From an uncultured Bdellovibrionales bacterium (lineage in GTDB: Bacteria; Patescibacteriota; Minisyncoccia; Moranbacterales; UBA2206): a stretch of DNA of 64,000 nucleotides. Shown here piece after piece: positions 397-23,992 of this stretch (position 1 is the first letter of the stretch; each line of letters starts with the position of its first letter). The stretch lies in assembly GCA_964387895.1 (NCBI GenBank), contig CAYLWX010000002.1:15779-79778 (forward strand), given 5' to 3'. Made by a program: the position numbers and the translations under genes. The notes under the pieces were generated by a model. That model worked only from the letters and a program-made list of their open reading frames with translations, did not search any database and was not told the DNA's origin.

Positions 397-408
397 ACAG
401 CCATACCT

Positions 409-3921: not shown

Positions 3922-4025
3922 AAAATATTATTCCTGTTGGACTTTTTTATACTTTCATGATAAAAAAGCTTTAGCAGTTTTCGCTCCTCTTTTTAACACT
4001 ATTATAAAAAACAAGGAGGCTGGAG

Positions 4026-4310: not shown

Positions 4311-4314
4311 CCGA

Positions 4315-4352
4315 GGGAGGCAAGGGATAGACCTTGCCTCCGTTTTATTTAT
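4315..4352 (+). terminator. rho-independent terminator
   Basis: ggaggcaagg-gataga-ccttgcctcc hairpin followed by a T-tract (gttttatttattt), immediately after the 4026-4310 ORF. Confidence 0.6.
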
Positions 4353-4362
4353 TTCATGACAA

Positions 4363-4392
4363 TTGACTACTCTCTTTCTTTTCCTCTATAAT
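4363..4392 (+). promoter_or_regulatory. sigma70-like promoter (TTGACT, 18-bp spacer, TATAAT) for thrS; TSS would fall at or near the ATG
   Basis: TTGACT at 4363-4368, TATAAT at 4387-4392, thrS ATG at 4400 with no SD. Possibly a leaderless mRNA. Confidence 0.4.
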
Positions 4393-4399
4393 AAGGCTT

Positions 4400-6172: not shown

Positions 6173-6224
6173 AAAATCCGTACAATAAAAAGCAAGAAGA
6201 GCAGTCCTAAAGGACCAGCTTTTT

Positions 6225-6335
6225 TTGTCTGAACCACTGATTCGCACATGATTACCCTGATTCCACTGATTATTTTATTTATACCAATTAATCAGTGCAA
6301 TCATGAAAATCAGTGATAATCAGTGGTTCAGACAA
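6225..6335. repeat. family-D palindromic element (TTGTCTGAACCACTGATT ... AATCAGTGGTTCAGACAA), empty form
   Basis: ~110-bp near-perfect dyad with internal CACTGATT/AATCAGTG sub-repeats. Lies between the thrS stop and the miaB start. Copies at 14178-14487 (carrying a nested element), 55819-55927 and a degenerate one at 7598-8004. Confidence 0.75.
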
Positions 6336-6340
6336 TTATT

Positions 6341-7612: not shown

Positions 7613-8004
7613 TTTGCTTGATTTAATGATTTCATGATTACACCTCCAAGCAGGTTCAAGCGTCTCACTTGAACCTTGGATTTCTGACAGGCTATAGTCC
7701 GCAAGAAACTAAAAGTTCAGGCGTCTCGCCTGAACTTGTAAGAAGTAAAAAATGATTTTATATTTTTAGGGCTTACGCATTTGACTGTCTTTTGTCATTC
7801 CCGTGTAGACGGGAATCCAGGAGAATACGACATATTTATCCTATAATAATCCAGTTATAGAGCAAAAAGAAACTAAATCAGCTTTGTTATGTATATCGTT
7901 TTCCTCGATGAATCCTGGATCCCCGCCTACGCGGGGATGACAAATGCGTAAGTCCTAATTTTGATTTGTCATTTTGATTTTTGATTTTTACATTTTTCAT
8001 TTTT
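7598..8004. repeat. composite repeat region: truncated family-D arms enclosing two small GCGTCTC-loop hairpins and a reverse-oriented family-E MITE-like element
   Basis: Left D arm ttgtctgaaccatgatttgcttgattt overlaps the last miaB codons. Hairpins at 7648-7678 and 7715-7735. E copy at 7771-7953. A partial D right arm (gtcattttgatttttgattttt) runs into the miaA start. Confidence 0.6.
7771..7953 (-). mobile_element. family-E MITE-like element (GC-rich hairpin terminal inverted repeats), copy 1, reverse orientation
   Basis: TIRs gtcattcccgtgtagacgggaatccagga / tcctggatccccgcctacgcggggatgac. Outer cttacgcatttg / caaatgcgtaag. The internal ~95 bp is ~80% identical (as reverse complement) to copies at 14231-14413 and 21145-21313. 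Confidence 0.5.
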
Positions 8005-8018
8005 ATTATAAAAAAAAT

Positions 8019-8912
8019 ATGAAAAAAATTATCGTCATCCTTGGTCCTACTTCTTCCGGAAAGTCCGATATTGCCATCAAACTTGCCCGGAAATTTAACG
8101 GCGAGATAATTTCGGCTGATTCCCGGCAGGTGTATCGCGGTATGGATTTGGGAACAGGAAAAGTTTCCAAAAAAGAACAGCAACTGGCGCCGCATCATAT
8201 GTTGGATATCGTCAGCCCCAAAACGGACTACAACGCGGCTAAATTCAAAAAGCAAGTGGAAAAAGTTATTGTTGATATTTTGAAAAGAAAAAAATTGCCT
8301 ATCCTCTGTGGCGGAACCGGATTTTGGATTAAAGCTTTGGTGGATGACATAACTTTTCCTAAAGTAAAACCGGATTGGAAACTAAGGAAGAAACTGGAAG
8401 CATATTCTGCTGATAAGTTATTCAGCATGATTAAAAAACTGGACAAATCCAGAGCTGAAACCATTGATCGGCATAATAAAGTGAGATTAACCAGGGCTAT
8501 TGAAATATGCAAATCTATCGGGAAAGTACCACGAGAGAAGAAAGAAGCAAGCAGTAAGCAGTATGCGTTTTTGCAAATCGGCGTTAGTGTTCCAAAAGAA
8601 GAATTGCATGAAAGAATTAAGGCCCGTTTGGAAAAAAGGTTTACGCAAGGGATGATCCGTGAAGTAGAAAAGTTGCACGGACAAAATAACGTAAGCTGGA
8701 AGAGAATGGAATCGTTTGGATTGGAATACTATTGGATCGCGTTATATTTGCAGAAAAAAATTTCCAGGAAAGATTTGAAAGAAAAACTTTTTCAAGACAG
8801 TAAAAATTACGCCAAACGGCAGATGACGTGGTTTCGGAAAGGTGAGAGGATTGTGTGGCTGGGAAATTATGAGGAGATTGAAAAATACGTGAAGATGTTT
8901 TTGGAGAAATAA
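8019..8912 (+). CDS. miaA: tRNA dimethylallyltransferase
   Basis: MKKIIVILGPTSSGKSDIAIKLA P-loop, DSRQVYRGMDLGTGK motif. Typical MiaA. Start moved to the ATG at 8019 (the track ORF starts upstream within the repeat). Confidence 0.85.
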   Translation: MKKIIVILGPTSSGKSDIAIKLARKFNGEIISADSRQVYRGMDLGTGKVSKKEQQLAPHHMLDIVSPKTDYNAAKFKKQVEKVIVDILKRKKLPILCGGTGFWIKALVDDITFPKVKPDWKLRKKLEAYSADKLFSMIKKLDKSRAETIDRHNKVRLTRAIEICKSIGKVPREKKEASSKQYAFLQIGVSVPKEELHERIKARLEKRFTQGMIREVEKLHGQNNVSWKRMESFGLEYYWIALYLQKKISRKDLKEKLFQDSKNYAKRQMTWFRKGERIVWLGNYEEIEKYVKMFLEK

Positions 8913-8931
8913 AAATATTGAGAGCCGGCGC

Positions 8932-8955
8932 TAAATTGCGCCGGCTCTATTTTTA
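8932..8955. terminator. bidirectional rho-independent terminator between convergent miaA and the amidohydrolase gene
   Basis: gagccggcgc-taaatt-gcgccggctc perfect 10-bp stem, flanked by A-run and T-run. Confidence 0.6.
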
Positions 8956-10080
8956 GATTTTAGGAAAATCTCCATTTATACCCTGAAAAACCTTAGTGTC
9001 CCGGTAGAGAGCTCTGGAAACCTGCTCCCTGTCCATATCATTTGGAGTTTCCCCGCAACCGATTTTTGCCCAGAGATCCAGGACATAAAATCGGAGGGAA
9101 TCCGCAAGATACACCAATTCTTCCAATATATTCGCGTCTCCGGTGGGAATAAAAATGTCAGCAATGTTATCCGTCCCTATCCGAATAGGAATTTCCCATT
9201 TAATCATTTCCAGAATTCGCGCGACACTATTATGTATCGGCGCGGAGAGAGATCGTAATTGACGCATGGAAAGAGCGGCTCTGGGGCAGCAAATCACGCC
9301 TATGTGGTATGTTTTCAGCCCTTCCAGAAGTTTCTTGAATCTGTATTCATCGTAGCAGGAAGGGGAAAGCGCGTGGACTGCCCATACCGTTGGATAAAAG
9401 TGACGCTCTATCTCAGGAGAGCCAATCCATCGCACTGCTTCAATGAGGGTTTCTGTTCCATTTTCCCGAGGATCATTCCCCTGGTCAACATGCACGTGAA
9501 CTTCTTTCTTTAGCGCTATGCCTAACTCCAGTACTCTCTTCAAATGAGCATCGTAGCCAATTCTGTCCGGCGCGTCATCTTTTTCCGGCAACGCACCAAT
9601 AAAATCGCACATTCTTGATGCTTCTACAAACACTTCCCACCGGTCTGGATTTACTTCTGGTTTTTTAAATCCAAAGATGGGCTGGGTTCCCACCTGAAAA
9701 TTAATCCTGCCCTTAAATTCTTCCTTGAGTTCCAGTGCTGGAATAATTGCTTTTAGTCCTATATCCGGAGTCGCGTCAATGAGTGAAGCCACTCTCTTTG
9801 TTCCAAAGTGAATCATTCTTTCCAGCTGGCACGCTACTCTGTCTTTAAATTCTTTATATTTATACGCGTCACTTTTGTGAAGCTCTCCGGTAAGATTTTG
9901 CTTTACTCTTAATGGAAGCGTGGCTGCCTCCAATGGGTCAATGCTGGCACGTTCCCAAAACTTTGGATCAAGCGTATTCGCCCGATCCAGATGGGCATGC
10001 GCATTCACCCAACCGCCATACTCTTCCGCCCTGTCCAAAAGTTTTCTCTTGAATGGAGAAAGCGCTTCCTTCCAGTCCAT
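8953..10080 (-). CDS. metal-dependent amidohydrolase, cytosine-deaminase-like
   Basis: WVNAHAHLD metal-binding HxH motif near the N-terminus, HVHVDQ and GTDN motifs. Overall resemblance to CodA/amidohydrolase_3. Substrate not assignable. Confidence 0.55.
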   Translation of the reverse strand: MDWKEALSPFKRKLLDRAEEYGGWVNAHAHLDRANTLDPKFWERASIDPLEAATLPLRVKQNLTGELHKSDAYKYKEFKDRVACQLERMIHFGTKRVASLIDATPDIGLKAIIPALELKEEFKGRINFQVGTQPIFGFKKPEVNPDRWEVFVEASRMCDFIGALPEKDDAPDRIGYDAHLKRVLELGIALKKEVHVHVDQGNDPRENGTETLIEAVRWIGSPEIERHFYPTVWAVHALSPSCYDEYRFKKLLEGLKTYHIGVICCPRAALSMRQLRSLSAPIHNSVARILEMIKWEIPIRIGTDNIADIFIPTGDANILEELVYLADSLRFYVLDLWAKIGCGETPNDMDREQVSRALYRDTKVFQGINGDFPKI

Positions 10081-10326
10081 ATCCTGCCCTTTCTATTCTA
10101 TTGTTAAAAAACAAAAAAGACGTCCCTTTAGACGTCCCTCCCTTGGAAATAGTGATTTCGTTTTCCGCATACTTTCAGAAGTATAGCGAAAATGGTTCGG
10201 GATTGTCAAATCAACTTCCTCTTAATAGTTGAAATCTTTATTTTTCAGAAGCTTATATTTTATACAGTTAGTAGAGATGTTTTTGAAATAAAATTACACT
10301 ATAAAATATTTTCCTGAAACACACTG

Positions 10327-10800
10327 TTATACGTATTTTTTCTTTAGTTTTTCCTCATCTTCTTCAGTATATCTAGGTTTTATAGTTTTAATATATAAAT
10401 CATCAACCAGCTCATCGGGGTCATAAGCTAAATTTTCTCTTTGTATTCTGAAAAACTCTCTTACTTCTTTAACCGTTCCAGTTAGTATTGGTGGCATTCC
10501 GGACAATGGATCGTAAACTTTTAAAAATTGTGAATAAGATGGATCTGCAATCAACTTTTCTTCATCTCTACGATCAATGTCGTCAGTAAGAGAAATATGT
10601 CCGCTACCCTGTTGTTCCGCCATGACTATTCCTTCTCGCTCCAGAGCCACTCTTAATTGCCTGGTGTAATCAATGCAACCTGCTCTTCCATCGCTTGACC
10701 ACGAGCTTAAAACAGGTGGCGCTTTTTGTTTAGCTCTTTCAAGCGCGGCAATTAAAATGGTTCGCGTTAATTTTTCTCTTCCAACTTCAAATGAACTCAT
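10327..10800 (-). CDS. hypothetical protein
   Basis: 157-aa ORF, no recognisable motif. Confidence 0.4.
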   Translation of the reverse strand: MSSFEVGREKLTRTILIAALERAKQKAPPVLSSWSSDGRAGCIDYTRQLRVALEREGIVMAEQQGSGHISLTDDIDRRDEEKLIADPSYSQFLKVYDPLSGMPPILTGTVKEVREFFRIQRENLAYDPDELVDDLYIKTIKPRYTEEDEEKLKKKYV

Positions 10801-10901
10801 TTTTATTTTCCAGAAACTTATATTTTTACAGTCAGTAAACTTAAAATAACTAGTTATAAACTCATTCCTGACATAGTAGTGTTTGCAAGATTTTTAAAAC
10901 T

Positions 10902-11831
10902 TTATTTAGCACTGTCAGCTTGTTCCCAACCCGATGTTTTGTTATATTCCACAGCCTTTTTCTTCGCCCATTCAACAAGATCATCAGAAACATCTTCTGA
11001 TTTTTGATCAACGACATCATACCTAGATTCGTTAATACTACTAATGTATTTATCGGCATCTTTATTTGGATATTTCTCTTTATAGGCAACTTTCAATTGA
11101 TCCAGAAATTTTGGATCACCCATGAGCTGTCTAGATGCCCATTGTCCAGTGTTTGCAGGGTTTATCTTAAATGCCTCCAACATGAACTTAGCGTTATTCC
11201 GAAGCGCAGGATACATACCCTTAATTGTTCCGTCTTTATCATACAAAGTCGCTACTTTAAGCCGTTCATAAACAATATTTTCTTGATTTTCCGCTTGCTC
11301 TTCCTGATCTTTTCCCGCTACATCTTCACTGCCAGCTCCCTTTATCCTCTCCAAAATATCTGCCGCTTTTTTGGCGTCTTCTTCCGCCTGGAGCCTGTCT
11401 TGTTCCGCAAGTTCGGCTTTTCTTTTTGCTTCTTCTTCCGCGGCTTTAGCGGCTTTGGCTTCATCAAAAGCCTTATTTTCTTTGAGAGCTTCCCCATGAG
11501 CTTTATCCATTTTCTCTTTATCACGCGTTACATTTTCTTCCAAGGCTTCGCCATGGGCGCTTTCAATCATTTCACTTTTTTGCGCTTCCATTTTTCCCTT
11601 CTGCGTCTCTTCTTGCCTTATGCCTCCTTCCTCCGCTTGTAACGCTTCCCCTTGCTGTTGCAGTTTTTTGCCCAAAGCAATTAATTCTTCCGGTGATTCA
11701 GCCTTCATCACTTCTTGAGACATTTCGCTTTTGGTTCCTTCAAATTTTTTCTTGAAATTTTCCCACTTATTTTTCACCGATTCTTTGGCTCCTTCATAGG
11801 CTTTCGCCACTTTTTCAAATGCGGCTCTCAT
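10902..11831 (-). CDS. hypothetical Glu/Lys-rich coiled-coil protein with internal repeats
   Basis: 309-aa ORF. Repeated HGEALEEN / AHGEALKENKAF segments. Predicted long coiled coil. Confidence 0.45.
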   Translation of the reverse strand: MRAAFEKVAKAYEGAKESVKNKWENFKKKFEGTKSEMSQEVMKAESPEELIALGKKLQQQGEALQAEEGGIRQEETQKGKMEAQKSEMIESAHGEALEENVTRDKEKMDKAHGEALKENKAFDEAKAAKAAEEEAKRKAELAEQDRLQAEEDAKKAADILERIKGAGSEDVAGKDQEEQAENQENIVYERLKVATLYDKDGTIKGMYPALRNNAKFMLEAFKINPANTGQWASRQLMGDPKFLDQLKVAYKEKYPNKDADKYISSINESRYDVVDQKSEDVSDDLVEWAKKKAVEYNKTSGWEQADSAK

Positions 11832-11866
11832 GTTTTTTATGTTAAAGATTATTATAAATACCTATT

Positions 11867-12181
11867 TTACGCCACCCTGATTCCAGTCTTTTTTATCTCC
11901 CTAACCATCGGATCAACCTCGCTTTCAAAATCTTCTGGAACAAATCCAATTGGTTCGATTCTTAAATCTACGTCCACGCCAATTTTCCATAATAGCTCCT
12001 CATTCTTATTCCAGTCTTTTTTTAATTTATCAGATAAGACCGCGATATCAATATCACTTCCTGCGTGATATTTTCCAACTGCGTATGAACCAAATAGATA
12101 AATCGCGGAAAAGGGATAGTTTTCTGCTTTCAATTTTTCTCCAAACTTTATGGCTATTTTTTTAGCGTCAGCTTTTGACAT
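11867..12181 (-). CDS. nucleotidyltransferase-domain protein (MNT/antitoxin-like)
   Basis: GSYAVGKYHAGSDIDIAVL is the minimal nucleotidyltransferase G[SG]...D.D motif. No HEPN partner seen nearby. Confidence 0.55.
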   Translation of the reverse strand: MSKADAKKIAIKFGEKLKAENYPFSAIYLFGSYAVGKYHAGSDIDIAVLSDKLKKDWNKNEELLWKIGVDVDLRIEPIGFVPEDFESEVDPMVREIKKTGIRVA

Positions 12182-12207
12182 AAATTCTGGTACAATTTCT
12201 TATCTCA

Positions 12208-12702
12208 TTACGCTTTTTTCAGTTTTAGCACCGCTCTGAATTGTTTCACTTCTTTTTCCAAGTTTCTCACTCTTTCCATGAGAGAGATGCGATTTCCTTC
12301 ATCCATGTTTCCTTCTTCCAGATGCTCCAGTCGTTTTTTTATATCTTTTATTTCCTCGTCAAGATTAGAAAAATATTCAAAAACTGTTTTGAAGTTGCTT
12401 TTGGTTTCATCTCTAAATTCAAAAAGTTTCTTAAAATTAATCGCAGTTTCATCTTTGAATTCAAAGAGTTTCTTAAAATTAATCGCAGTTTCATCTTTGA
12501 ATTCTCGCAATTCTTCCTGCAGTATGGTTTGCCCTTCCGCCACGGCGTCAAATTTTCCTTCCAAATGTTCAATAAGCGCGCCTACTTCGCTCGCTCGAAA
12601 CATCCGTTCTATTTTTTTATCCATTTTTTTAAACTTTTTTTTCTTCATAGTAGTGAATAAATTCGCCCTAAAAGTATAGCATAAATGGAACGGCCTTATC
12701 AC
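12208..12702 (-). CDS. hypothetical coiled-coil protein containing a perfect 14-aa tandem repeat
   Basis: FKDETAINFKKLFE x2 then a diverged third copy. Start overlaps gatB stop by 4 bp (ATGA); alternative start at 12648 (MKKKKF). Confidence 0.4.
   Translation of the reverse strand: MIRPFHLCYTFRANLFTTMKKKKFKKMDKKIERMFRASEVGALIEHLEGKFDAVAEGQTILQEELREFKDETAINFKKLFEFKDETAINFKKLFEFRDETKSNFKTVFEYFSNLDEEIKDIKKRLEHLEEGNMDEGNRISLMERVRNLEKEVKQFRAVLKLKKA
12418..12501. repeat. 2 x 42-bp perfect tandem repeat inside a CDS
   Basis: ttcaaa(a/g)agtttcttaaaattaatcgcagtttcatctttgaa twice, in-frame within ORF 12208-12702. Confidence 0.8.
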
Positions 12703-14168
12703 CCCAACCTTCCCCTTAATATCTCCATCACCACCTTCGGATTCGCCTTTCCTTTCGTCGTAGCCATAACCTGCCCCATTAAAAACTGCAACGCGTTTTG
12801 CTTTCCGCTTTTGTAGTCTTCCACTGATTTCGTATTGCGCGCGAGTACTTCGTCTACCGCTTTTTCCAGCTCAATCGTATCACTTACCTGGGAAAGTCCC
12901 CTAGATTCAATGATCTGGGAAGGATCGCCTCCAGTTCGATACATTTCCTCCAGCACCGCCTGCGCCGCGCTCGAGTTTATTTTCTCACCCGCTACAAAGC
13001 CGATCAGTTCAGCATAATTTTCCGCGGTAATTTTTATGTCCTTTACCGTCTGGTTATTTTTTATTAAATGCTTTTGCAATTCGCTTACAATATAGTTAGC
13101 CGCCAGCTTAATAAACTTTTCCTCGAGTGCTGATACTTCGCCGGAATCCTTCATGGCTTTCAGCTCTGAAATCACTTCTTCAAAATACTGAGCCAAATCT
13201 TTGTCGCTCACCAGCACTTCCGCGTTTTCCCTGGAGACGCCATACTCTGCCATGAGTCTTTGCCTCCTGGCCTCCGGAAGTTCCGGGAGTTTACGCCGTA
13301 AGTTTTCGATATATTCATCCGTAAATACCATTGGCGGGATGTCCGGTTCTGGGAAATAGCGGTAGTCATGCGCCGCTTCCTTTTTACGCTGTGATACAGT
13401 TATACTTTTACCGCTGTCAAATCCTCTCGTTTCCTGTACTACTTTTTCTCCCTTATCCAAAATTTCCGTCTGCCGTTTAATCTCATACTCCACCGCTTTT
13501 TCCACAAATCGAAATGAGTTAATGTTCTTCACCTCTACTTTAGTACCGCTTAATTTGCCTTCTCCCTCTTTGTGCAAAGAAATATTTACCTCGCAGCGCA
13601 TGTGCCCTTTTTCCATATCCGCGTCAGAAATTTCCAGATAGCGGAAAATCTGCTGCAATTTCTGGCAAAACATCCGCGCTTCGAACGCCGATTCAATATC
13701 CGGTTCCGTAACCAGCTCCATAAGAGGCACGCCGGCACGATTGAAATCTACTAAAGAATACTTCGCGCCAGCAGGATGCACTAATTTCCCGGTATCTTCT
13801 TCCAGATGAATCCGGGTAATGCCGACTTTTTTATCATTTATTTCCAAATACCCCCGCTCGCAAAGCGGCTGGTCATATTGAGAAATCTGATACCCCTTGG
13901 GAAGATCGGGATAAAAATAATTTTTCCGGTCAAATTTAGATTCTTTTCTTAACTCGCAATTCAAAGCCAATCCGGCCATCTGAACAAATTCAATCGCCTG
14001 CCGATTCGGCACTGGTAACGTCCCGGGCTGGCCGGTGCACACAGGGCAAATATTCACATTCGGTTCTGTTTCCCCGCCCATGCCGTTTTTGCTTGCGCAA
14101 AACATCTTGGACTTTGTTTTAAGTTCAACATGGATTTCGAGACCGATAGTGGAAAGATAAGTTGGCAT
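12699..14168 (-). CDS. gatB: Asp-tRNA(Asn)/Glu-tRNA(Gln) amidotransferase subunit B
   Basis: MPTYLSTIGLEIHVEL..., C-terminal YqeY-like tail. No gatA/gatC adjacent. Confidence 0.9.
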   Translation of the reverse strand: MPTYLSTIGLEIHVELKTKSKMFCASKNGMGGETEPNVNICPVCTGQPGTLPVPNRQAIEFVQMAGLALNCELRKESKFDRKNYFYPDLPKGYQISQYDQPLCERGYLEINDKKVGITRIHLEEDTGKLVHPAGAKYSLVDFNRAGVPLMELVTEPDIESAFEARMFCQKLQQIFRYLEISDADMEKGHMRCEVNISLHKEGEGKLSGTKVEVKNINSFRFVEKAVEYEIKRQTEILDKGEKVVQETRGFDSGKSITVSQRKKEAAHDYRYFPEPDIPPMVFTDEYIENLRRKLPELPEARRQRLMAEYGVSRENAEVLVSDKDLAQYFEEVISELKAMKDSGEVSALEEKFIKLAANYIVSELQKHLIKNNQTVKDIKITAENYAELIGFVAGEKINSSAAQAVLEEMYRTGGDPSQIIESRGLSQVSDTIELEKAVDEVLARNTKSVEDYKSGKQNALQFLMGQVMATTKGKANPKVVMEILRGRLG

Positions 14169-14177
14169 AAAGTTTAT

Positions 14178-14487
14178 TTGTCTGAACCACTGATTATCAC
14201 GTGATTACACATGATTTCACTGATTCATGACTTACGCATTTGTCATCCCCGCGAAGGCGGGGATCCAGGATTCAATGGGCGAGGTGAAATATAAAAATAT
14301 ACTAATTTCGATTCTTTTTACTCTATATCTGGATTATTATTAGATAGCCGTATGGTATACTCCTGGATTCCCGCCTACGCGGGAATGACATAAAAGAAAG
14401 CCAAACGCGTAAGTCATGTGATTTTTATTTTTCACTAAGCCAATCTGTGTAATCAGGAAAATCAGTGCGAATCAGTGGTTCAGACAA
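14178..14487. repeat. family-D palindromic element with a nested family-E element inserted at its centre
   Basis: Left arm 14178-14230 and right arm 14414-14487 together match the 110-bp element at 6225-6335. Between divergent gatB and ndk. Confidence 0.7.
14231..14413 (+). mobile_element. family-E MITE-like element, copy 2
   Basis: cttacgcatttgtcatccccgcgaaggcggggatccagga ... tcctggattcccgcctacgcgggaatgacataaaagaaagccaaacgcgtaag. TIRs are themselves hairpins (ccccgc-gaag-gcgggg). Confidence 0.5.
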
Positions 14488-14626
14488 TTACGCTACCAGT
14501 CTAGCATAAAAATAACAAATGTAAAAGGCTTTGTTGAGCTATAAAATAATAAGAACCCTTGCTAAAATTTGTATTTTCGTGTAGGAATTATATAGCTTTC
14601 TTTGACAATAGAATGTTTTCCGGAAA

Positions 14627-14652
14627 AAAATGTGTTCGTCACATTTTTTAAC
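14627..14652. promoter_or_regulatory. 10-bp-arm inverted repeat AAAAAATGTG-ttcgt-CACATTTTTT upstream of ndk (candidate operator)
   Basis: Perfect dyad ~35 bp upstream of the ndk ATG, followed by AAGGAG SD. Confidence 0.3.
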
Positions 14653-14684
14653 TATCAACAAACAAGTGCACCAGTAAAGGAGAC

Positions 14685-15131
14685 TTGGCAATGGCAGTAG
14701 AGAAAACTGTTGTAGTGGTTAAACCTCATGTCCGCAGACACTTTCCAGATTATGGAAGAGTTCTGGAGGATATACTAGACGTTTACACAATGGGTCTGAA
14801 ATTAAAAATACTAGCTGTTAGAAACGTACTCTTTACCCAAAGACAAGCTGAAGCTTTCTATTCAGAACACTTTGGAAAAACATTTTACGAGAAACTTATC
14901 CAAGCTCAATTGGAAGGACCATGCACAGTGATAATATTAGAAGGAGAGGATGCGATCAAAGCGGTTCGCTACATCCACGGTCCCACTAATCCAGATGACT
15001 GGAGAGAGGGACACCTGAGAAAAAGATACGGAAAACCCGAAGAAGGAGGACCATACAACGCTCTTCACGCGACAGACAGCCCTGAAAAATATGAGAGAGA
15101 GTACCTGATCACACTAATGACGGTCGTTTAG
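14685..15131 (+). CDS. ndk: nucleoside diphosphate kinase, divergent
   Basis: VVVKPHV, GPTNPDDW and NALHATDSPE correspond to the NDK motifs (KPDG, GATNP, NxxHGSDS) including the catalytic His. Good SD. Confidence 0.55.
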   Translation: MAMAVEKTVVVVKPHVRRHFPDYGRVLEDILDVYTMGLKLKILAVRNVLFTQRQAEAFYSEHFGKTFYEKLIQAQLEGPCTVIILEGEDAIKAVRYIHGPTNPDDWREGHLRKRYGKPEEGGPYNALHATDSPEKYEREYLITLMTVV

Positions 15132-15175
15132 ACCACAAAAGAGGCGGTTCCAGTGAAACCGCCTCTGATTATTTT

Positions 15176-15937
15176 TTATTTCAGTATTTCCGCTACCGCG
15201 CTGCCATATCCGCCAATATTCCCTACAAAACTTTTTAAATCTTTTCCATCCACGCACACAAGTGATTTCATTTCCTGGTCATTATACTGTGAAAATAATT
15301 GCAATAATTCTCCGCAAGATATATTTAATGTTACAAAAAATAACGCGCCAACTGTGTAGCCGTCAGTAAGCACCAATCCTCTTATGTAACAATCTTTTAT
15401 TAATGTCGTACGTATTCCTGTCTCTTCTTCCAACTCTTTATAAAGTACGCTAAATAAATCCTTACTCCCAGCAATTACTAATTCATCGTGCGAAGCTACT
15501 CCTCCAATAAAATCAACCTTCTTATGATTCATGGTATTGCCGGATAATTCTCCGAAAATATACTTTTCATCAGAAGTTTTAATAATACTGGCTACAAAAA
15601 GTCCTTTGCTGTAGTATTCCTCATCCATTTCCGCCACCTCAGGAACAAAACGCATAGTGTTTCTCACACTAAAATCAATGGTTGAAAGTTCCAGGGATAA
15701 TTTCTTTTTAGAAAACGCATACGCGTTCAGACGATAGGTTGAAGAATCCCATACCTTTACGCCTTTATCCTTTGCTTCCCGCACCCGTTGATCCCAGAGA
15801 TTTATAATCTTACTTTCCAGTTCCGGATCTATTTTTCGATGAGAAGCTTCATTTACCGTGATAGAAATATCGTCAGGGTAGTAGATTCCTTGTAGTAATA
15901 CGCGTGGTAGATTTGTAGCCATTCTTTTTATTTTCAA
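15176..15937 (-). CDS. hypothetical protein, divergent Nudix-like (KELEEETGI resembles the REUxEExGU Nudix box)
   Basis: 253-aa ORF in the nucleotide module. Only a partial Nudix box is recognisable, so low confidence. Confidence 0.3.
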   Translation of the reverse strand: MKIKRMATNLPRVLLQGIYYPDDISITVNEASHRKIDPELESKIINLWDQRVREAKDKGVKVWDSSTYRLNAYAFSKKKLSLELSTIDFSVRNTMRFVPEVAEMDEEYYSKGLFVASIIKTSDEKYIFGELSGNTMNHKKVDFIGGVASHDELVIAGSKDLFSVLYKELEEETGIRTTLIKDCYIRGLVLTDGYTVGALFFVTLNISCGELLQLFSQYNDQEMKSLVCVDGKDLKSFVGNIGGYGSAVAEILK

Positions 15938-15956
15938 TCCTCTTTCCTTTTAATTT

Positions 15957-16496
15957 TCACACCTGCACCTCTTTCCCTTCCGTGCTCACTCTTCCTCCCT
16001 GCCACTGGCCTCGGTATTGGTTTCCCTCGCCGTCCACTTGATGAAAAGTAATGTGTACCACTCGCGCGCCGAAAGAAACTTTTATAGCGCTTTTTCCAAG
16101 ATTGCAAATGCCAAAGGTAAGTTCGCCGGAGTATCCTGGTTGGACCACTCCGTTAAAAAGTCCCAGTCCGGAACGGAACAGTGTGGTACGGGGGAAAATA
16201 ATTCCGGAAATATCTACCGGCAAATTCACCTTTTCCATGGTTTTTATCAAATAATACTTTCCCGGCTCAAACACAAAATGAGTTTCCTTTTCCGGATCAA
16301 AACCAGCAACCAGTTTTGCTTCAGGAGTATTTCTTTCTTCCACTCCTAAAAATCCATCGCCTTCTAATTCGTATATTTCCCCCATCCGCAAATCAAATCC
16401 CGCTCCTTCGGGATTATTCATCTCCCGTTCGCAAAGATTCTCCACTAACTTTATTTCATCAACAAGCTGATGAAGTTTTTTAATTCCCAAGATCAT
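15957..16496 (-). CDS. dcd: dCTP deaminase / dUTPase-superfamily enzyme
   Basis: GFDLRMG ... IFPRTTLFRSGL ... VQPGYSGELTFGICNLG are typical dcd/dut trimeric-fold motifs. Confidence 0.75.
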   Translation of the reverse strand: MILGIKKLHQLVDEIKLVENLCEREMNNPEGAGFDLRMGEIYELEGDGFLGVEERNTPEAKLVAGFDPEKETHFVFEPGKYYLIKTMEKVNLPVDISGIIFPRTTLFRSGLGLFNGVVQPGYSGELTFGICNLGKSAIKVSFGARVVHITFHQVDGEGNQYRGQWQGGRVSTEGKEVQV

Positions 16497-16505
16497 AAAA
16501 TAATG

Positions 16506-17006
16506 TTAACGAGTTAATTCTAAAAAAGTAAATTTATGCTCTCCGTTATCACGCGCCTCTTCACTTATTATATTTTTAAACTCTGAATAATCCGGAAAGT
16601 ATGTATCCGCTTCATATTCTCCTTCAACCACAGTAAGGTAAAGTTTATCCGCGAAACTCATCGCCTGCTGGTATACCTGCCCGCCGCCGATAACAAATAT
16701 TTCTTCTCTTTCTACTTCTCCTGCTTTTTCAAGCGCCTCTTCCATTGAATGGCATACAACACATCCTTCCAGTATTAAATCAGCTTTTCTCGTAAGCACA
16801 ATATTCACTCTCCTTGGTAACGGCCTGCCTATAGAGTAGAAAGTATTTTCTCCCATAATTACAGGGTGTCCCGCGGTGATAGATCTGAAATGCTGAAGGT
16901 CTTCCGGAATATTCCACAAAAGCCGGTTATCCTTGCCAATTGCCCGATCTCTGGCAATGGCGCAGATGATGCTAATGATTGGTTTTTTATTAACTTTTTC
17001 TGGCAT
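16506..17006 (-). CDS. folA: dihydrofolate reductase
   Basis: ISIICAIARDRAIGKDNRLLWNIPEDLQHFRSIT ... VIMGENTFYSIG. Classic DHFR. Confidence 0.85.
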   Translation of the reverse strand: MPEKVNKKPIISIICAIARDRAIGKDNRLLWNIPEDLQHFRSITAGHPVIMGENTFYSIGRPLPRRVNIVLTRKADLILEGCVVCHSMEEALEKAGEVEREEIFVIGGGQVYQQAMSFADKLYLTVVEGEYEADTYFPDYSEFKNIISEEARDNGEHKFTFLELTR

Positions 17007-18606
17007 AGTTTTTGGTAGTTTCCCTGAATCCTCCGATATTGGCTATAGGCGCCCTAAGAACGCCATGCGGATCGTAATTTTCGAGAATAATATCTTCTAG
17101 TTTGAATTCATCAATATTTTTTATTTCAGGATTCAGTTTTAACGTTGGAAACGGACGGGGAGTTCTTTCAAGCTGTTCTTTTACTTGATCAAAGTGATTA
17201 GAATATATATGAACATCTCCAAAAAAATGCACAAAATCTCCTACTGGAAGTCCGGTTGCCTGTGCCACCATCATGAGCAGCAACGCGTAGCTGGCAATAT
17301 TAAAGGGAACTCCCAGAAATGAATCCGCGCTTCTCTGGTAAAGTCCGCAATTTAATTTTCCATCTACCACCGCGAATTGGAAGGTCGTGTGGCAAAAAGG
17401 CGGCACCTCATTTTTATTTTTCTCGGACGCCATCGCGTAAATAAAATCCGGATTCCAGGCTGAGATTACATACGACTTGCGGTATGGATCATTTTTCAGC
17501 CCGTCAATTATCCACGAAAGCTGATCAATTTCCCTCCCGTCACTGGCTGGCCATCTCCGCCACATTCGTCCGTAAATCGTAATGAGATCTCCCCAGGTTT
17601 TCACAAACTCGCTGTCTTTATCCTCTGATTTAAGTTTGGCAATAAATTCTTCCTGGGATATATCCTGCTCCGCCAGATTATTCTGCGAGCAGTGTTTATG
17701 ATATCGCTTATACGCCCATTCATCCCAAATATGGACGTCCCTGTCCACCAGATACTTAATATTCGAATCTCCGCTTAAAAACCAAAGCAATTCAACAAAA
17801 ATTCCGCGGGAGAATACTTTTTTGGTTGTGAGAAGCGGAAAGCCCTTGCTTAATTCAAACCGCATGCTCCGTCCGAATACCGATCGAATGAAAGGAGGTT
17901 CTTCCCCCTTATCTTTGTATTGTTGCAATACTTCAGGAGTAAAGAATAATTGTTTGTCTGATCCGTTATCCAAAATATCTTGTAAGAGATTGAGATATTG
18001 ATACTCCGGATAAGTATCCTTAGTTTCCGCGACACAACTGCCACATGCGCCTGTGAAAATAATTTCTTCTTTTCCTTCAAAAGTATTTTTAAAATTCTCT
18101 AAATTTCCGGAAAATTTCTCCAATATTATTCCACGCTTGTTTGCCAATTCTTTTACTTCGTTTTCTTTTTCCGTTCCAGTGTTTCCTGCCTTAACTCTTT
18201 CATATTCTTCAAAATATACAATTCGTTTTACGCCTAAATTATTAAGCGCTTTCATGCAGTCGTAGCAGGGAGAAGAAGTAACGTATAACGTGGAATTTTT
18301 AAGTCGTGTGGGATTACCGGCATTCATGATGGCGTTAATCTCGCTGTGCGCGCCCCGACAACGTTTCAGTTCTTTGGTAACAGGATCGCCATCTACCTTG
18401 GCACATCCCACCTCAAGACAATGACTGTCTCCACGGCTCGGTCCATTATATCCTGTCGCGACAATTCGATGATCCTCATCCACAAACACCGACGCGATTT
18501 CATGGTACCGGCATGCCGCGCGCTTAGCTAAAATTTTAGCCAGCATCATAAATGTTTCATCCCAGTCAGGGCGGGTGTGCTTGATCACTTTTTTAGGTGA
18601 GGACAT
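16990..18606 (-). CDS. thyA: bifunctional dCMP deaminase (N-terminal) - thymidylate synthase ThyA (C-terminal) fusion protein
   Basis: N-terminal ~160 aa carry HCLEVGCAKV...CAHSEINAI...SSPCYDCMKAL (CDA-fold dCMP deaminase, HxE and PCxxC). The C-terminal ~340 aa are ThyA: PPFCHTTFQFAVVDGKLNCGLYQRSADSFLGVPFNIASYALLLMMVAQ has the catalytic Cys and the dUMP-specific Asn. Confidence 0.8.
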   Translation of the reverse strand: MSSPKKVIKHTRPDWDETFMMLAKILAKRAACRYHEIASVFVDEDHRIVATGYNGPSRGDSHCLEVGCAKVDGDPVTKELKRCRGAHSEINAIMNAGNPTRLKNSTLYVTSSPCYDCMKALNNLGVKRIVYFEEYERVKAGNTGTEKENEVKELANKRGIILEKFSGNLENFKNTFEGKEEIIFTGACGSCVAETKDTYPEYQYLNLLQDILDNGSDKQLFFTPEVLQQYKDKGEEPPFIRSVFGRSMRFELSKGFPLLTTKKVFSRGIFVELLWFLSGDSNIKYLVDRDVHIWDEWAYKRYHKHCSQNNLAEQDISQEEFIAKLKSEDKDSEFVKTWGDLITIYGRMWRRWPASDGREIDQLSWIIDGLKNDPYRKSYVISAWNPDFIYAMASEKNKNEVPPFCHTTFQFAVVDGKLNCGLYQRSADSFLGVPFNIASYALLLMMVAQATGLPVGDFVHFFGDVHIYSNHFDQVKEQLERTPRPFPTLKLNPEIKNIDEFKLEDIILENYDPHGVLRAPIANIGGFRETTKNYARKS

Positions 18607-18622
18607 AGGGTTAAATCAAAAA

Positions 18623-19180
18623 TTAACTTTTTATTCTTTTAATAATGCTATCCGCCTGACGGCATAATTCATCCACCGTTTTCTCATTAATTACCACGTA
18701 GTCCGCCATAGCAATAGGACCGGCCTGGTGCAGATTTTCTATTTGAGCGTAATCCCTGCTCTCTGACTCTTCAGGGGAAAGCGGCCGCACTGGTCTTTGG
18801 CTCAATCTTCCATACCTCACTTTTGGACAAGCATGCACTGCGATAGTTTCAAACTGGCTTCCAAAAAATTTTTTAAAATACAAATACTCCTCCCAGCTAT
18901 ATAAACTCTCTACTAAAATAATTTTTTCTTCTTTTAAAGATTTAATCTTCTTCACTACTTCTTCCGCGAGGCAAAGTAACCCTCTCTTTTCCCGCAAATC
19001 TTCGCGCGCCAACCGCTCGTTTTTTTCAGTGACCTCCAGACCTCTTCTTTTCATCTCATCAAAAACAACATCCCCGAAATATACCTTTTTAAGCGTGTAG
19101 TTTTCTACTAAATATTTTACTGTCTCTGTTTTCCCTGAACCAGGTAATCCTAACACTGCGATAATTTTTTGATTATCCAT
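18623..19180 (-). CDS. P-loop nucleoside/nucleotide monophosphate kinase-like protein (adenylate-kinase fold)
   Basis: VLGLPGSGKTETVKYL Walker A, 185 aa. The family is not resolvable (dephospho-CoA-kinase-like or NMP-kinase-like). Confidence 0.5.
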   Translation of the reverse strand: MDNQKIIAVLGLPGSGKTETVKYLVENYTLKKVYFGDVVFDEMKRRGLEVTEKNERLAREDLREKRGLLCLAEEVVKKIKSLKEEKIILVESLYSWEEYLYFKKFFGSQFETIAVHACPKVRYGRLSQRPVRPLSPEESESRDYAQIENLHQAGPIAMADYVVINEKTVDELCRQADSIIKRIKS

Positions 19181-19189
19181 TGGGTTATA

Positions 19190-20452
19190 TTACTTCAAAT
19201 TTTTATACAACGGAAACTTCTTACACAACCCTTTCACTTCCTTTCTCACCCGACTCAACACTTTCTTATCCGTATGATTTTCCACCACTTCATAAATCCA
19301 CTTCGCGATCATTTTTATTTCCTTCTCCTTCATTCCGCGCGTGGTGACTGCCGGCACGCCGATGCGTATGCCGCTTGGATCCATGGGGCTTCTCGGGTCA
19401 TCCGGAATCATGTTTTTGTTCAGCGTGATGCCGACTTCATCCAGCGCGACTTCGGCTTCTTTTCCTGTCACGCCCTTACTGCCGAATACATCCGCCAGCA
19501 CCATATGGTTATCCGTCCCGCCAAACATAATTTTAAAGCCGTATTGTACCAGTTCTTTTTCCAATACCTTCGCGTTTTTGATCACTTGTTTCGCGTAGCG
19601 GCGGAAATCCGGTCTCAAGGCTTCTCCAAACGCGACCGCTTTGGCCGCGATATTGTTCATATGCGGTCCGCCCTGAAATCCCGGGAAGGCCGCTTTATCG
19701 ATCGCTTTGGCAAATTCTGCTTTGCACAAAATCATTCCCCCTCTCGGACCGCGTAATGTTTTGTGCGTAGTGGTGGTTACAATGTCAAAATAAGGCACGG
19801 GATTCGGTAGCGCGCGTCCCGCGATGAGCCCCGCAATGTGCGCGATGTCAATCATGGACACGGCCCCGACTTTTTTGGCAATCGCCTGAAATTTCGCGTA
19901 ATCCAATTGGCGAGTGTACGCGGAAAATCCGGCTAAAATAAGTTGGGGGTTTTCTTTGATCGCCATTTCTTCCAGCGCTCTGTAATCAATAAGCCCTGAC
20001 GCGTCTGTTTTATATCGAATAAAATTATACACTTTTGCCGCAAGCGTTACCGGATGGCCATGTGTCAAATGTCCGCCATGGGAAAGATCCATGCCCAATA
20101 CTTTGTCGCCCGGTTTCAACACCGCGCTATAGGCAATCATATTGGCCGGCGCTCCGGAGAGCGGCTGGACATTGACATGTTCGGATCCAAAAAGTTTTTT
20201 CGCCCGCGCTATCGCCAATTCTTCCACTGCATCAGTATACTTCTGCCCGCCATAATATCTTCTCCCGGGATATCCTTCGGAATATTTATTAGTAAAGACT
20301 GACCCCAATGCTTCCAGCACCGCAGAAGAAACATAATTTTCCGAAGCAATAAGCTCCATTCCTTCCTGCTGGCGTTTAATCTCGCCCAGCGTGGCGCGAT
20401 ACACTTCTTTGTCCTGGAATTTGAGATGTTTCATAATTCCCAACCTTACCAT
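19190..20452 (-). CDS. glyA: serine hydroxymethyltransferase
   Basis: PLP-binding [14 protein letters not shown] motif, full-length SHMT. ATG at 20434 ([10 protein letters not shown]) is an alternative start. Confidence 0.9.
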
Positions 20453-20542
20453 TTATGCAATAATTGCAATTTTAGTATACCTGTTTATGCAAAACATGTC
20501 ATGCAAAAACAGTTGAAAGAAACAAAAAGCCCTCTCCGGGCT

Positions 20543-21103
20543 TTATTTATTCAATACTTTTTTCATTATTTCATCCACTGAAGTATACAGATAATCCAGA
20601 TCTTTTTCATTTACTATTTTAAAATCCGCCGTGGCGCCGATTTCCGGAATAAGTACTTCCGTGGCGCCCCGTTCGATTTCCTGGAATTTTTCAAAACTCA
20701 TATTGTCGTCTGATTTTTCCCCTCTTTTTATGGAGCGTTCCCAGCGCAGCTTTCGATCCGCGGTCGTGTAGATAACGTGACTCTCTGGAAAATTCTTTAC
20801 CATCTCATAATCTTCCCAATACCGTATACCATTCACCACCACTAATCCCTCTTCTTTATCAATTCTTCTTTTCAATCCCTTGCAAAGAATATTCGCGCCG
20901 AATCTTTTTTTAAATTCAATTGCCAGCCATTGCTGGTCTTCTTTGGAAATTTGATCAAAATAGATATGCAGCGCGTCTTTTAAAGGATCAATAAATCTCA
21001 TTACTTTTGCGCCGTAATGTCGCGTAAGATATTCCGCGACAGTATCCTTTCCTGATCCGCTTTCGCCGACGAGACCAATTAAAATTCTTTTTTTATATTC
21101 CAT
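20543..21103 (-). CDS. deoxynucleoside monophosphate kinase, phage T4 gp1-like
   Basis: LVGESGSGKDTVAEYL ... DPLKDAL matches the T4 Dnk signature (SGKDT ... PIKDAL). 186 aa. Confidence 0.6.
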   Translation of the reverse strand: MEYKKRILIGLVGESGSGKDTVAEYLTRHYGAKVMRFIDPLKDALHIYFDQISKEDQQWLAIEFKKRFGANILCKGLKRRIDKEEGLVVVNGIRYWEDYEMVKNFPESHVIYTTADRKLRWERSIKRGEKSDDNMSFEKFQEIERGATEVLIPEIGATADFKIVNEKDLDYLYTSVDEIMKKVLNK

Positions 21104-21144: not shown

Positions 21145-21313
21145 CTGCGTTTGGCTTTCTTTCTTGTCATCCCCGCGAAGGCGGGGATCCAGAATTTGAT
21201 AGGTAAGGCGAACTATATAAGGAAACTAATTTTGATTCTCTTTGCTTTATAACTGGATTATTATTGGATAGGTATGTTGTATACTCCTAGATTCCCGCCT
21301 ATGCGGGAATGAC
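21145..21313 (+). mobile_element. family-E MITE-like element, copy 3 (solo, without family-D arms)
   Basis: ctgcgtttggctttctttcttgtcatccccgcgaaggcggggatccagaa ... tcctagattcccgcctatgcgggaatgac. Between the dNMP kinase start and the rplA stop. Confidence 0.5.
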
Positions 21314-21341
21314 ATGGAAAACTTTCTTATTTTTGATAATT

Positions 21342-22516: not shown

Positions 22517-22655
22517 TAAATCCTAAGCACGATCCCGAGTACTCGGGACTAAATCCTAAACAATATCTAAATTAAAATTACCCAAATTAAAAATGTTTTA
22601 GATTTTGGTAATTTGAATTTGTTTAGGATTTAGATATTAAAATTTAGAATTTAAA
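22517..22655. repeat. family-B dyad element (AAATCCT 7-mer inverted arrays around AAAATGTTTT) with embedded TCCCGAGTACTCGGGA palindrome
   Basis: Between the nusG stop and the rplK start. Shares a cgtgcttaggattt segment abutting the start codon with the copy at 51365-51497. Confidence 0.7.
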
Positions 22656-22661
22656 TATCGA

Positions 22662-23595: not shown

Positions 23596-23672
23596 TGGTG
23601 GGCGTATCTGGATTCGAACCAGAGACCTCGTCATTATCAGTGACGCGCTCTAACCAACTGAGCTATACGCCC
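23596..23672 (-). tRNA. tRNA-Ile (anticodon GAT), CCA encoded
   Basis: Reverse complement GGGCGTATAGCTCAGTTGGTTAGAGCGCGTCACTGATAATGACGAGGTCTCTGGTTCGAATCCAGATACGCCCACCA folds as a cloverleaf with anticodon loop CTGATAA. Confidence 0.9.
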
Positions 23673-23675
23673 TTG

Positions 23676-23748
23676 TGGACCGTGCCGGACTCGAACCGGC
23701 CACCTCCTCGGTGCAAACGAGGCACTCTACCAGATGAGCTAACGGCCC
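23676..23748 (-). tRNA. tRNA-Ala (anticodon TGC)
   Basis: Reverse complement GGGCCGTTAGCTCATCTGGTAGAGTGCCTCGTTTGCACCGAGGAGGTGGCCGGTTCGAGTCCGGCACGGTCCA. Acceptor G3:U70 Ala identity pair present. Anticodon loop TTTGCAC. Confidence 0.9.
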
Positions 23749-23835
23749 TGTAGACTGACCGTTATTCTAACAAAAAATAATAATACTGTCCATACCAACC
23801 AGATTATTGTAAAATAAATAGATTTCAAAAATCCT

Positions 23836-23944
23836 AATATCCAAATCCCAATGCCAAATAAAATCCCAAATCCCAATTTCAAAACTTTTGGACATTCTGA
23901 TTTTGGGTTTTATTGGATATTGGGATTTGGGAATTGTAAATTTA
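23836..23944. repeat. family-A dyad element, diverged copy (CCCAAAT/GGGATTT arms, CAAAACTTTTGG centre)
   Basis: Upstream (5') of the minus-strand tRNA-Ala/Ile-secE-nusG block, downstream of murD. Confidence 0.65.
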
Positions 23945-23992
23945 GATCATAGTAAATATCTTCCAGCCACATACATTCACTTTTCTTTATTA

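Follow-up and report, generated by a model that had tools for sequence, protein, structure and literature searches.

The coupling of the thymidylate synthase ThyA to the dihydrofolate reductase (DHFR) FolA, which sets it apart from the alternative synthase ThyX, is well established, and so are bacterial thyA-folA (dfrA) gene pairs and the fused DHFR-thymidylate synthase (DHFR-TS) proteins of protozoa and plants. Phage T4 carries the genes cd, td, and frd besides gene 1, and the gene 1 product, gp1, phosphorylates the deoxynucleoside monophosphates (dNMPs) dTMP, dGMP, and hydroxymethyl-dCMP. We have analyzed a module of eight genes at positions 14685 to 21103 of a 64,000-nucleotide stretch of DNA (the window; GenBank assembly GCA_964387895.1, contig CAYLWX010000002.1), which is filed under an uncultured Bdellovibrionales bacterium. 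Judged from its best-named homologues, the window is a piece of the chromosome of Candidatus Moranbacteria/Moraniibacteriota, within the Patescibacteria or candidate phyla radiation (CPR). An earlier note on this DNA had described the module as a thymidylate and deoxynucleoside triphosphate (dNTP) cluster that might have come from a phage or be horizontally mobile. The cluster itself is real: all eight open reading frames (ORFs) are present where the note had placed them (Table 1) and they are functionally coherent, with ndk on the opposite strand from the other seven. As to its origin, the module is probably a chromosomal, vertically inherited housekeeping operon of Moranbacteria, serving dTMP and dNTP synthesis by pyrimidine deoxynucleotide interconversion, and the proposal of a phage origin or of mobility as a unit does not hold.

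The seven minus-strand genes are separated by very short spacers. There are 90 nt between the first kinase gene, kinA, and glyA, 9 nt between glyA and the second kinase gene, kinB, and 16 nt between kinB and a gene in which a dCMP deaminase is fused to ThyA (deaminase::ThyA). The end of the latter overlaps the start of folA by 17 nt, and spacers of 9 nt and 19 nt follow between folA and the gene for a DCD-like protein and between this gene and an ORF resembling human NUDT22. The plus-strand gene ndk is convergent to the others.

The slot between rplA and gatB in Moranbacteria

The kinA family comprises 277 homologues in a collection of 5.8 billion proteins; the 120 that are listed are all more than 50% identical to kinA, and every named one among them belongs to Moranbacteria/Parcubacteria (CPR). 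Relatives of kinA are present in 154 species-level genomes of GTDB, and the 80 loci kept for inspection are nearly all titled Moranbacteria or Parcubacteria. Relatives titled "uncultured Bdellovibrionales" or "Micavibrio" were not taken as cross-phylum occurrences, since their loci share the Moranbacteria synteny. The relative L002 (on a contig of 557 kb) has the gene order of the window, kinA-glyA-kinB-cdd-thyA-folA-DCDlike-gatB-miaA-miaB-thrS, and L004 (287 kb) reads nusG-rplK-rplA...kinA-glyA-cdd-thyA-folA...gatB. In 36 of 75 loci rplA lies no more than 3.5 kb upstream of kinA, and in 25 of 49 gatB is reached within 10 kb on the downstream side. Downstream sequence of 6 kb or more is available for 56 loci; among these the second kinase is found in 40, a thymidylate synthase in 36 (ThyA in 28 and ThyX in 8), the deaminase in 27, folA in 26, tmk in 23, mazG in 12, and the DCD-like gene in 8. 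A slot consisting of nusG-rplK-rplA, the module, and gatB-miaA-miaB is shared by many Moranbacteria, and it would go back to an ancestor of much of the order.

What the slot contains is mosaic; over evolutionary time, individual components were replaced or gained there. Besides the version with ThyA and FolA there is a second common version with the order kinA-deaminase-kinase-ThyX-Tmk-MazG, and folA is found beside ThyA in 26 of 28 loci and beside ThyX in none of 8, a coupling which argues for a working operon. A third version is seen in several relatives (L011, positions 11215-14781, and also L017, L030, L039, L053, and L066), with 2.5-3.5 kb between thyA and folA. Here a divergent ThyA-like protein is followed by a HIT-family protein, and the opposite strand encodes a protein of 281 aa whose C-terminal domain is a dCMP deaminase, as well as a cytidylyltransferase-like and a Nudix protein.

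Congruence with the remaining chromosome was quantified as the Spearman correlation of pairwise protein distances to those of rplA, rplK, and nusG combined. The values are 0.70 for kinA, 0.73 for folA, and 0.74 for cdd (10 pairs only), with 0.70 for the control gene gatB. The GC content ranges over 0.37-0.49 in the module genes, the mean of the window being 0.42, and Mann-Whitney tests of these genes against the 58 remaining ones gave p 0.37 for GC, 0.06 for GC at third codon positions, and 0.81 for codon-usage distance; the composition that the earlier note had wanted compared with the flanking genes is thus native. For every gene tested the nearest homologues are from Patescibacteria and are far closer than those of any phage; ThyA is 75-83% identical to Patescibacteria ThyA and at most 48.6% identical to any of 3763 phage records. 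We take the shared slot, the ribosomal-like divergence, the native composition, and the nearest relatives in Patescibacteria as evidence for vertical inheritance with no recent gain from a phage or a mobile element. A vertical history together with a block conserved in relatives had been named as the outcome that would speak against phage origin, and for the core of the module, i.e. kinA, the second kinase, the deaminase, ThyA, and FolA, this is largely what we find.

A number of observations weigh against the reading of the module as an inherited housekeeping operon. The contigs of the related loci, from metagenome-assembled genomes, are fragmentary, 80 of the 154 loci were kept and inspected, and the gene labels in them stem from tblastn with queries from the window. 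The synteny check proposed in the earlier note has a divided outcome: the core slot from rplA to gatB is conserved in many relatives, but the exact eight-gene block was found nowhere else. The glyA gene is inside the module in only 3 of the 56 loci with sufficient downstream sequence, and both ndk and the NUDT22-like gene are missing from all of 86 related loci. At least three classes of ThyA (approximately 80%, 47%, and 29% identical to that of the window) occupy the slot, which accounts for the poor correlation of ThyA distances with the ribosomal markers (Spearman 0.40-0.49), and some components were therefore replaced, possibly by transfer. Finally, direct copies of a repeat resembling a miniature inverted-repeat transposable element (MITE) flank the block, the DCD-like protein is devoid of the known catalytic residues so that the dCTP branch is unproven, and the family of kinA is otherwise typical of viruses.

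The ndk and NUDT22-like genes are lineage-specific additions to the slot. In L002 the gap between the DCD-like gene and gatB is 15 nt, where the window holds the NUDT22-like ORF, ndk, and repeats. ndk is also the top codon-usage outlier among 29 window genes of similar length (distance 0.342; the mean over the window is 0.173). It stays below every cut-off of the NDK models in NCBIfam, and it keeps the His in its NALHATD motif; the metagenome scan gave no relative of it with more than 40% identity. The gene may have been acquired later.

Table 1 Features of the module, its spacers and flanks, and a second fusion gene in a related locus (window positions unless stated otherwise).
Feature	Position	Strand	Evidence or remark
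ndk	14685-15131	+	PF00334, 97 bits
NUDT22-like ORF, 253 aa	15176-15937 (alternative start ATG at 15922)	-	AlphaFold model versus NUDT22
DCD/dUTPase-superfamily protein (earlier label dcd)	15957-16496	-	fold match, below NCBIfam cut-offs
folA, DHFR	16506-17006	-	PF00186, 180 bits
dCMP deaminase::ThyA, single 538-aa ORF	16990-18606	-	PF00383, 78 bits; PF00303, 313 bits; TIGR03284
kinB, compact P-loop kinase resembling nucleoside monophosphate kinases	18623-19180	-	AAA_17/AAA_18
glyA, serine hydroxymethyltransferase (SHMT)	19190-20452	-	PF00464, 512 bits; NF000586, 584 bits (cut-off 335)
kinA, compact dNMP-kinase-like P-loop kinase, 186 aa, first gene of the module	20543-21103	-	PF21448 DNMK, 30.4 bits
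Bidirectional terminator-like hairpin between NUDT22-like gene and ndk	15140-15166	.	10-12 bp stem, 6-7 G-C pairs
Terminator-like hairpin directly after kinA stop	20526-20544	-	consensus scan
Promoter-like site before glyA	20502-20474	-	consensus scan
MITE-like repeat, copy A, gatB-ndk spacer	14225-14410	+	nested in second palindromic repeat
MITE-like repeat, copy B, kinA-rplA spacer	21145-21324	+	direct orientation, 84% identical to copy A
MITE-like repeat, third copy, miaB-miaA spacer	7775-7954	-	inverted
Second palindromic repeat, about 113 nt, intact copies	6215-6335; 55815-55926
Second palindromic repeat, split copy	14173-14228 + 14442-14487
Second deaminase::ThyA fusion, related locus L195	3580-5154 of L195		other gene order, folA upstream

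Enzymes encoded by the module

In the deaminase::ThyA fusion the deaminase takes up approximately residues 1-180 and ThyA approximately residues 200-538, with a linker of about 25 residues between them. The zinc and catalytic motifs of the deaminase, GAHSEINA and SPCYDCMK, are found within residues 85-120 (PF00383, 77.6 bits), and the ThyA domain reaches 361.8 bits with TIGR03284 (cut-off 108.35) and keeps the catalytic Cys in a PPFCH motif read in the sequence. The fusion is genuine but rare. Among the best 120 matches there is one other fused homologue, P0125 (67% identity, different linker), which turned up on contigs assembled from samples of ENA/JGI and of Logan and lies downstream of rplA-folA, with folA upstream. 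Outside the fusions the deaminase and ThyA genes are separate, with 12 nt between them. A description of a deaminase-ThyA fusion was not found in the literature searched, where the matches from Toxoplasma were irrelevant.

By homology, the zinc dCMP deaminase fused to ThyA would convert dCMP into dUMP and further into dTMP, while DHFR and SHMT would regenerate methylene-tetrahydrofolate and close the folate cycle of ThyA. The presence of this complete cycle, as claimed in the earlier note, is confirmed by Pfam and NCBIfam for SHMT, ThyA, and DHFR alike. The fusion and the overlap with folA may couple expression and possibly channel dUMP. Nucleoside diphosphate kinase (NDK) would, again by homology, convert deoxynucleoside diphosphates into dNTPs. 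The route from dCTP/dCMP to dTTP that had been read from the sequence is thereby upheld from dCMP over dUMP to dTMP and at the NDK step, but not in its dCTP branch.

The protein labelled dcd in the earlier note does have the DCD/dUTPase fold, with an hhalign probability of 98.3% against E. coli Dcd and an E value of 1.5e-26 for its family profile against 9LN0. The label is not sustained at the sequence level: the score is below the cut-off for dCTP_deam (TIGR02274, 81.9 bits versus 92.8), for archaeal dUTPase (NF002598, 74.9 versus 130), and for TIGR00576 (33.5 versus 102.6). In alignments to 4XJC, 9LN0, and E. coli Dcd, Gly129 stands at the site of the catalytic Glu138 of E. coli Dcd, and Gln119 at the site of Dcd Asp128, the motif-III Asp of dUTPases (D90 in E. 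coli Dut), which is kept in 9LN0, 4XJC, and 9W59. The same replacement of Glu and Asp is found in 11 Moranbacteria orthologues, and other loci hold a canonical dUTPase. An exhaustive search gave 307 cluster representatives of DCD-like proteins at E<=1e-10, and in the 150 best of them the Asp site is S, A, D, N, H, P, or Q and the Glu site mostly Gly. When 30 members were compared with NCBIfam, only dCTP-deaminase and dUTPase models were matched (the dCTP-deaminase model by all 30, best E 8.8e-29) and none of the 30 reached the curated family cut-offs. An Arg (R55 in the window protein) is invariant in the family and falls in a gapped part of the alignment to E. coli Dcd.

The likeness to E. 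coli Dcd and the archaeal-type dUTPases (9LN0/8Y1W, 4XJC) accordingly consists of the fold and most nucleotide-binding motifs, and the difference of the Gly at the position of Glu138 and a variable residue at that of the Asp. The protein belongs to an uncharacterised subfamily and would, from these residues, be unable to act as a canonical dCTP deaminase. Because the protein lacks the catalytic Glu and Asp and stays below the cut-offs, the step from dCTP over dUTP to dUMP is left unproven.

The earlier note had ascribed a T4 gene-1 kinase signature to kinA. The N-terminal motif is indeed shared (LIGLVGESGSGKDTVAEYLTRHYGAKVMRFIDPLKDAL in kinA of the window and LIFLSGVKRSGKDTTADFIMSNYSAVKYQLAGPIKDAL in T4 gp1, in the hhalign alignment; gene 1 sequence from NC_000866): GESGSGKDT at residues 13-21 and DPLKDAL (PLKDAL at 40-45) align with KRSGKDT...GPIKDAL of gp1, and both motifs are invariant or almost so across 27 family members. 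Moreover, kinA matches phrog_139 (deoxynucleoside monophosphate kinase) over residues 1-184, which is its full length, with 84 bits. What is not shared is the T4 architecture. T4 gp1 has 241 aa with long extra segments after PIKDAL, which are missing from the 186 aa of kinA in the hhalign alignment, so that the common ground is a GxxxSGKDT...P(I/L)KDAL N-terminus in remote homologues. The match to PF21448 DNMK (gathering score 27.1) covers only profile positions 2-62 of 232, and phmmer aligns only residues 8-47 with 1DEK (E 0.02).

The AlphaFold model of kinA (pLDDT 88.6) finds Sulfolobus SSO1041 (3LW7) as its top solved structure in Foldseek, with TM scores of 0.77/0.84; UMP/CMP kinase and adenylate kinases (AK1) come next, and 1DEK is not within the top 50 structural neighbours. 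At the sequence level kinA matches SSO1041 with E 3e-6. kinB is paralogous to kinA over its full length (26% identity, E 3e-14), and its best sequence match in PDB is likewise SSO1041/UPF0200 (3LW7; E 4e-15, full length); it also matches phrog_10255 "kinase" with 61 bits. SSO1041, an "adenylate kinase-related protein" of UPF0200 (3LW7/3H0K), is the best full-length solved relative of both kinases and resembles them in being compact (about 180 aa), but it is archaeal and only about 22% identical. No paper on UPF0200/SSO1041 or on dNMP kinases of Patescibacteria was found in the literature searched. Collectively, kinA falls into the broad DNMK/UPF0200 superfamily of kinases, many of which are found in viruses, and it is of a compact type and not of the T4 architecture.

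From family and gene neighbourhood we infer that kinA and kinB are (d)NMP kinases, which would phosphorylate dNMPs such as dTMP, dCMP, or dUMP. Their constant association with deaminase and thymidylate synthase, even beside a canonical tmk (23 of 56 loci), suggests that they act on more than dTMP, e.g. on dCMP, dUMP, or dGMP. Salvaged dNMPs would thereby enter the dNTP pool of an organism that is expected to rely on salvage.

The NUDT22-like ORF had been called Nudix-like, which is justified at the level of the fold and not of the sequence. There is no sequence match in Pfam (including PF00293), NCBIfam, PHROGs, PADLOC, or PDB, and only three homologues were found in the 5.8 billion proteins. 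One of these is the database copy of the ORF itself, identical over 248 aa and beginning at the alternative start (Table 1), and the other two are 49% and 42% identical and located in unrelated gene neighbourhoods, one beside a canonical Nudix gene (L089). An AlphaFold2 model built from 3 sequences (pLDDT 74.5) matches human NUDT22 (5LOU_A) with a TM score of 0.79 and E 1.5e-12 in Foldseek. Human NUDT22, which hydrolyses UDP-glucose and UDP-galactose, does not have a conventional Nudix box (PMC5688067), and as a UDP-glucose hydrolase producing UMP it is tied to pyrimidine salvage (PMC10101856). The ORF shares with it the two-domain fold and the lack of a conventional box; its sequence GGVASHDE-x14-KELEEETGI has 14 residues instead of 7, and K for R, relative to Gx5Ex7REUxEExGU. 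The two proteins are only about 16% identical and the confidence of the model is moderate. If the likeness extends to activity, the protein could free UMP from UDP-sugars.

Flanking repeats, neighbouring genes, and alternative origins

The MITE-like element is 152-186 nt long, with terminal inverted repeats of 28-46 nt that each contain a GC hairpin (TCCCCGCGAAGGCGGGGA / TTCCCGCCTACGCGGGAA), and it occurs in only three copies in the window, all of them intergenic. The palindromic repeat that is split in the gatB-ndk spacer (GTCTGAACCACTGATT...AATCAGTGGTTCAGAC) reads, on sequence grounds, as the target of a nested insertion of the MITE-like element. In other Moranbacteria loci (L028, L029, L074, L082) only the hairpin end of the MITE-like repeat, of approximately 30 nt, was found. 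In L087, the closest relative with this junction (kinA 79% identical), the spacer between rplA and kinA has 29 nt and no repeat; the adjacency of rplA and kinA is therefore older than the repeat insertion. We interpret the repeats as MITE-like elements with operon boundaries as their place of insertion and do not see in them the vehicle of the module; in this lineage two such small elements would have been added to the slot along with ndk and the NUDT22-like gene. Further short AT-rich dispersed or inverted intergenic repeats, which include CCAAT/TCCCAAT-rich units, were seen at 310-368, 23825-23946, and 36495-36574, and at 22596-22657 and 51360-51498.

Besides ORFans the flanks consist of core housekeeping genes, with dnaE, thrS, miaB, miaA, five ORFans, and gatB beyond ndk, and rplA, rplK, nusG, secE, tRNA-Ile/Ala, and murD beyond kinA. 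With Pfam applied to the ORFs at 367-14168, PHROGs to those at 8953-12702, and ORF order and tblastn labels to the remaining window, no integrase, transposase, terminase, or phage structural gene was found among the neighbours of the module, in agreement with the earlier statement that it is not a prophage. The tRNAs closest to the module are at 23596-23748, past rplA-nusG, and an Rfam scan of the window detected four tRNAs only, with no riboswitch or other RNA within the module. The hairpin between the NUDT22-like gene and ndk is strong and has T-rich tails on either strand. The hairpin after the kinA stop and the promoter-like site before glyA suggest that kinA may have its own transcript; all three features come from a consensus scan for promoters and terminators whose counts are close to the expectation from shuffled sequence (23 versus 16.5 and 9 versus 7.0), the two hairpins being the strongest in it.

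Between miaA and gatB, on the minus strand at 8953-12702, there are five ORFs of 375, 157, 309, 104, and 164 aa where L002 has a gap of merely 246 nt, and they look like a lineage-specific island. Four of the five have no match in Pfam or PHROGs. The 104-aa ORF encodes a nucleotidyltransferase (MNT-like, PF01909), which is possibly one half of a toxin-antitoxin pair.

The flanking repeats raise the question whether the whole block was gained recently as a unit, derived from a phage or moved as a composite element by the MITE-like repeats. Direct repeats with terminal inverted repeats do bracket the eight genes exactly, and, given 17 spacers of 150 nt or longer, a post hoc calculation puts the chance that 2 of the 3 copies fall on both flanks at about 0.02. 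T4, too, encodes cd, td, frd, and gene 1, the last of which was confirmed in its genome record. We nevertheless consider such a gain very improbable, as relatives devoid of the repeats have the same junctions (rplA-kinA with 29 nt in L087, DCDlike-gatB with 15 nt in L002), and on this ground we reject the composite transposon. The third copy and the second repeat family are found in ordinary spacers, i.e. at operon boundaries, and the composition, the nearest homologues in the same lineage, and the lack of transposase, integrase, or phage genes nearby all speak against it as well. Still less probable is an anti-phage function by nucleotide depletion. DcdV is a protein in which a P-loop kinase is fused with a deoxycytidylate deaminase (DCD) and which deaminates dCTP and dCMP (bioRxiv 10.1101/2021.03.31.437871), and the module could be imagined as a DcdV split into separate genes. 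Partial matches to the PADLOC model "dCTPase" were obtained for kinB (39 bits), kinA (23 bits), and the deaminase domain (67 bits), and to NF041025 for kinB (22 bits) and the deaminase domain (67 bits), but these scores are far under the curated cut-off (67 versus 400 bits). The DcdV type has its P-loop kinase at the N-terminus and its DCD domain at the C-terminus of one polypeptide, whereas kinase and deaminase are not fused to each other here; the deaminase is instead joined to ThyA beside DHFR and SHMT, which is a context for making dTMP and not for destroying the dC pool, and the locus is a conserved core-genome slot by ribosomal genes and no defence island. The sub-threshold partial matches, the unfused genes, and the biosynthetic context led us to reject the defence reading.

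What remains of the phage-origin idea is an ancient capture, in which kinA, perhaps with its paralogues, was of viral origin and took on a fixed housekeeping role in an ancestor of Moranbacteria, the remaining module being bacterial. In its favour we note the full-length match to phrog_139 (E 2.3e-23), the DNMK score above the Pfam gathering threshold, and the resemblance to T4 gp1 (hhalign probability 88.7% for the family profile, and the common N-terminal motif). Remote relatives are present in at least 421 IMG/VR contigs and in 19 GenBank phages. Among predicted viral structures, compact phage and giant-virus proteins match the kinA model with TM scores of 0.75-0.81, and several of these are annotated as dNMP kinases. 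The viral identity, however, does not exceed about 30% when long matches are considered: kinA shows 25-27% identity to proteins of 18 large phages, 16 of which are Bacillus phages, and its longer matches in IMG/VR are 22-33% identical, with approximately 50% reached over the first 45 residues only. The top solved structure is the cellular, archaeal SSO1041, the paralogue kinB has no phage homologue by tblastn, and the data do not tell in which direction a transfer would have gone. As the kinA distances track those of the ribosomal proteins, any viral capture must predate the diversification of the order. We regard the capture as possible, if rather doubtful, and it is compatible with the housekeeping operon proposed above.

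Deoxynucleotide supply in Moranbacteria and known systems

The cluster is ordinary in kind, being a housekeeping operon that is conserved in the lineage and has a few uncommon components, and since the claim of phage origin fails it offers no lead to a mobile element. What it shows is that an order of ultra-small CPR bacteria, thought to live on salvaged nucleotides, has a conserved "deoxynucleotide slot" flanked by rplA and gatB. It also brings together four uncharacterised protein types, the DNMK/UPF0200-like kinases, the catalytically atypical DCD-fold family with its hundreds of clusters at 50% identity, the deaminase::ThyA fusion, and a bacterial NUDT22-like protein, which bear on how such organisms balance their dNTP pools. 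As a tentative proposal, Moranbacteria might supply their dNTPs by a lineage-specific set of such proteins, comprising two paralogous compact kinases of the viral and archaeal DNMK-UPF0200 type that are fixed beside the ribosomal-protein genes in much of the order, a fusion that channels dUMP, a DCD-fold protein which, with both known catalytic residues lost, has a new activity or a regulatory role, and, in the lineage of the window, a NUDT22-like hydrolase supplying UMP from UDP-sugars. If this were true, the kinase family would exemplify the domestication of a nucleotide kinase of viral type into a bacterial core gene.

Compared with the bacterial thyA-folA (dfrA) pairs, ThyA keeps the company of FolA here, and ThyX does not, as the biochemistry predicts, but the module is longer, with a deaminase fused to ThyA, SHMT, two dNMP-kinase-like genes, and an anchoring between rplA and gatB. 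The fusion resembles DHFR-TS of protozoa and plants in joining thymidylate synthase to the enzyme of a neighbouring step. Here, however, the partner is the upstream enzyme dCMP deaminase, placed N-terminally and connected by the short linker, and DHFR is separate. With phage T4 (cd, td, frd, and gene 1) the module has in common that dCMP deaminase, a ThyA-type synthase, DHFR, and kinase activities are encoded, to which it adds SHMT, a second kinase, the DCD-like protein, and NDK; and unlike those of T4 its genes are located in a conserved slot of a bacterial chromosome, where their divergence tracks that of the ribosomal proteins.

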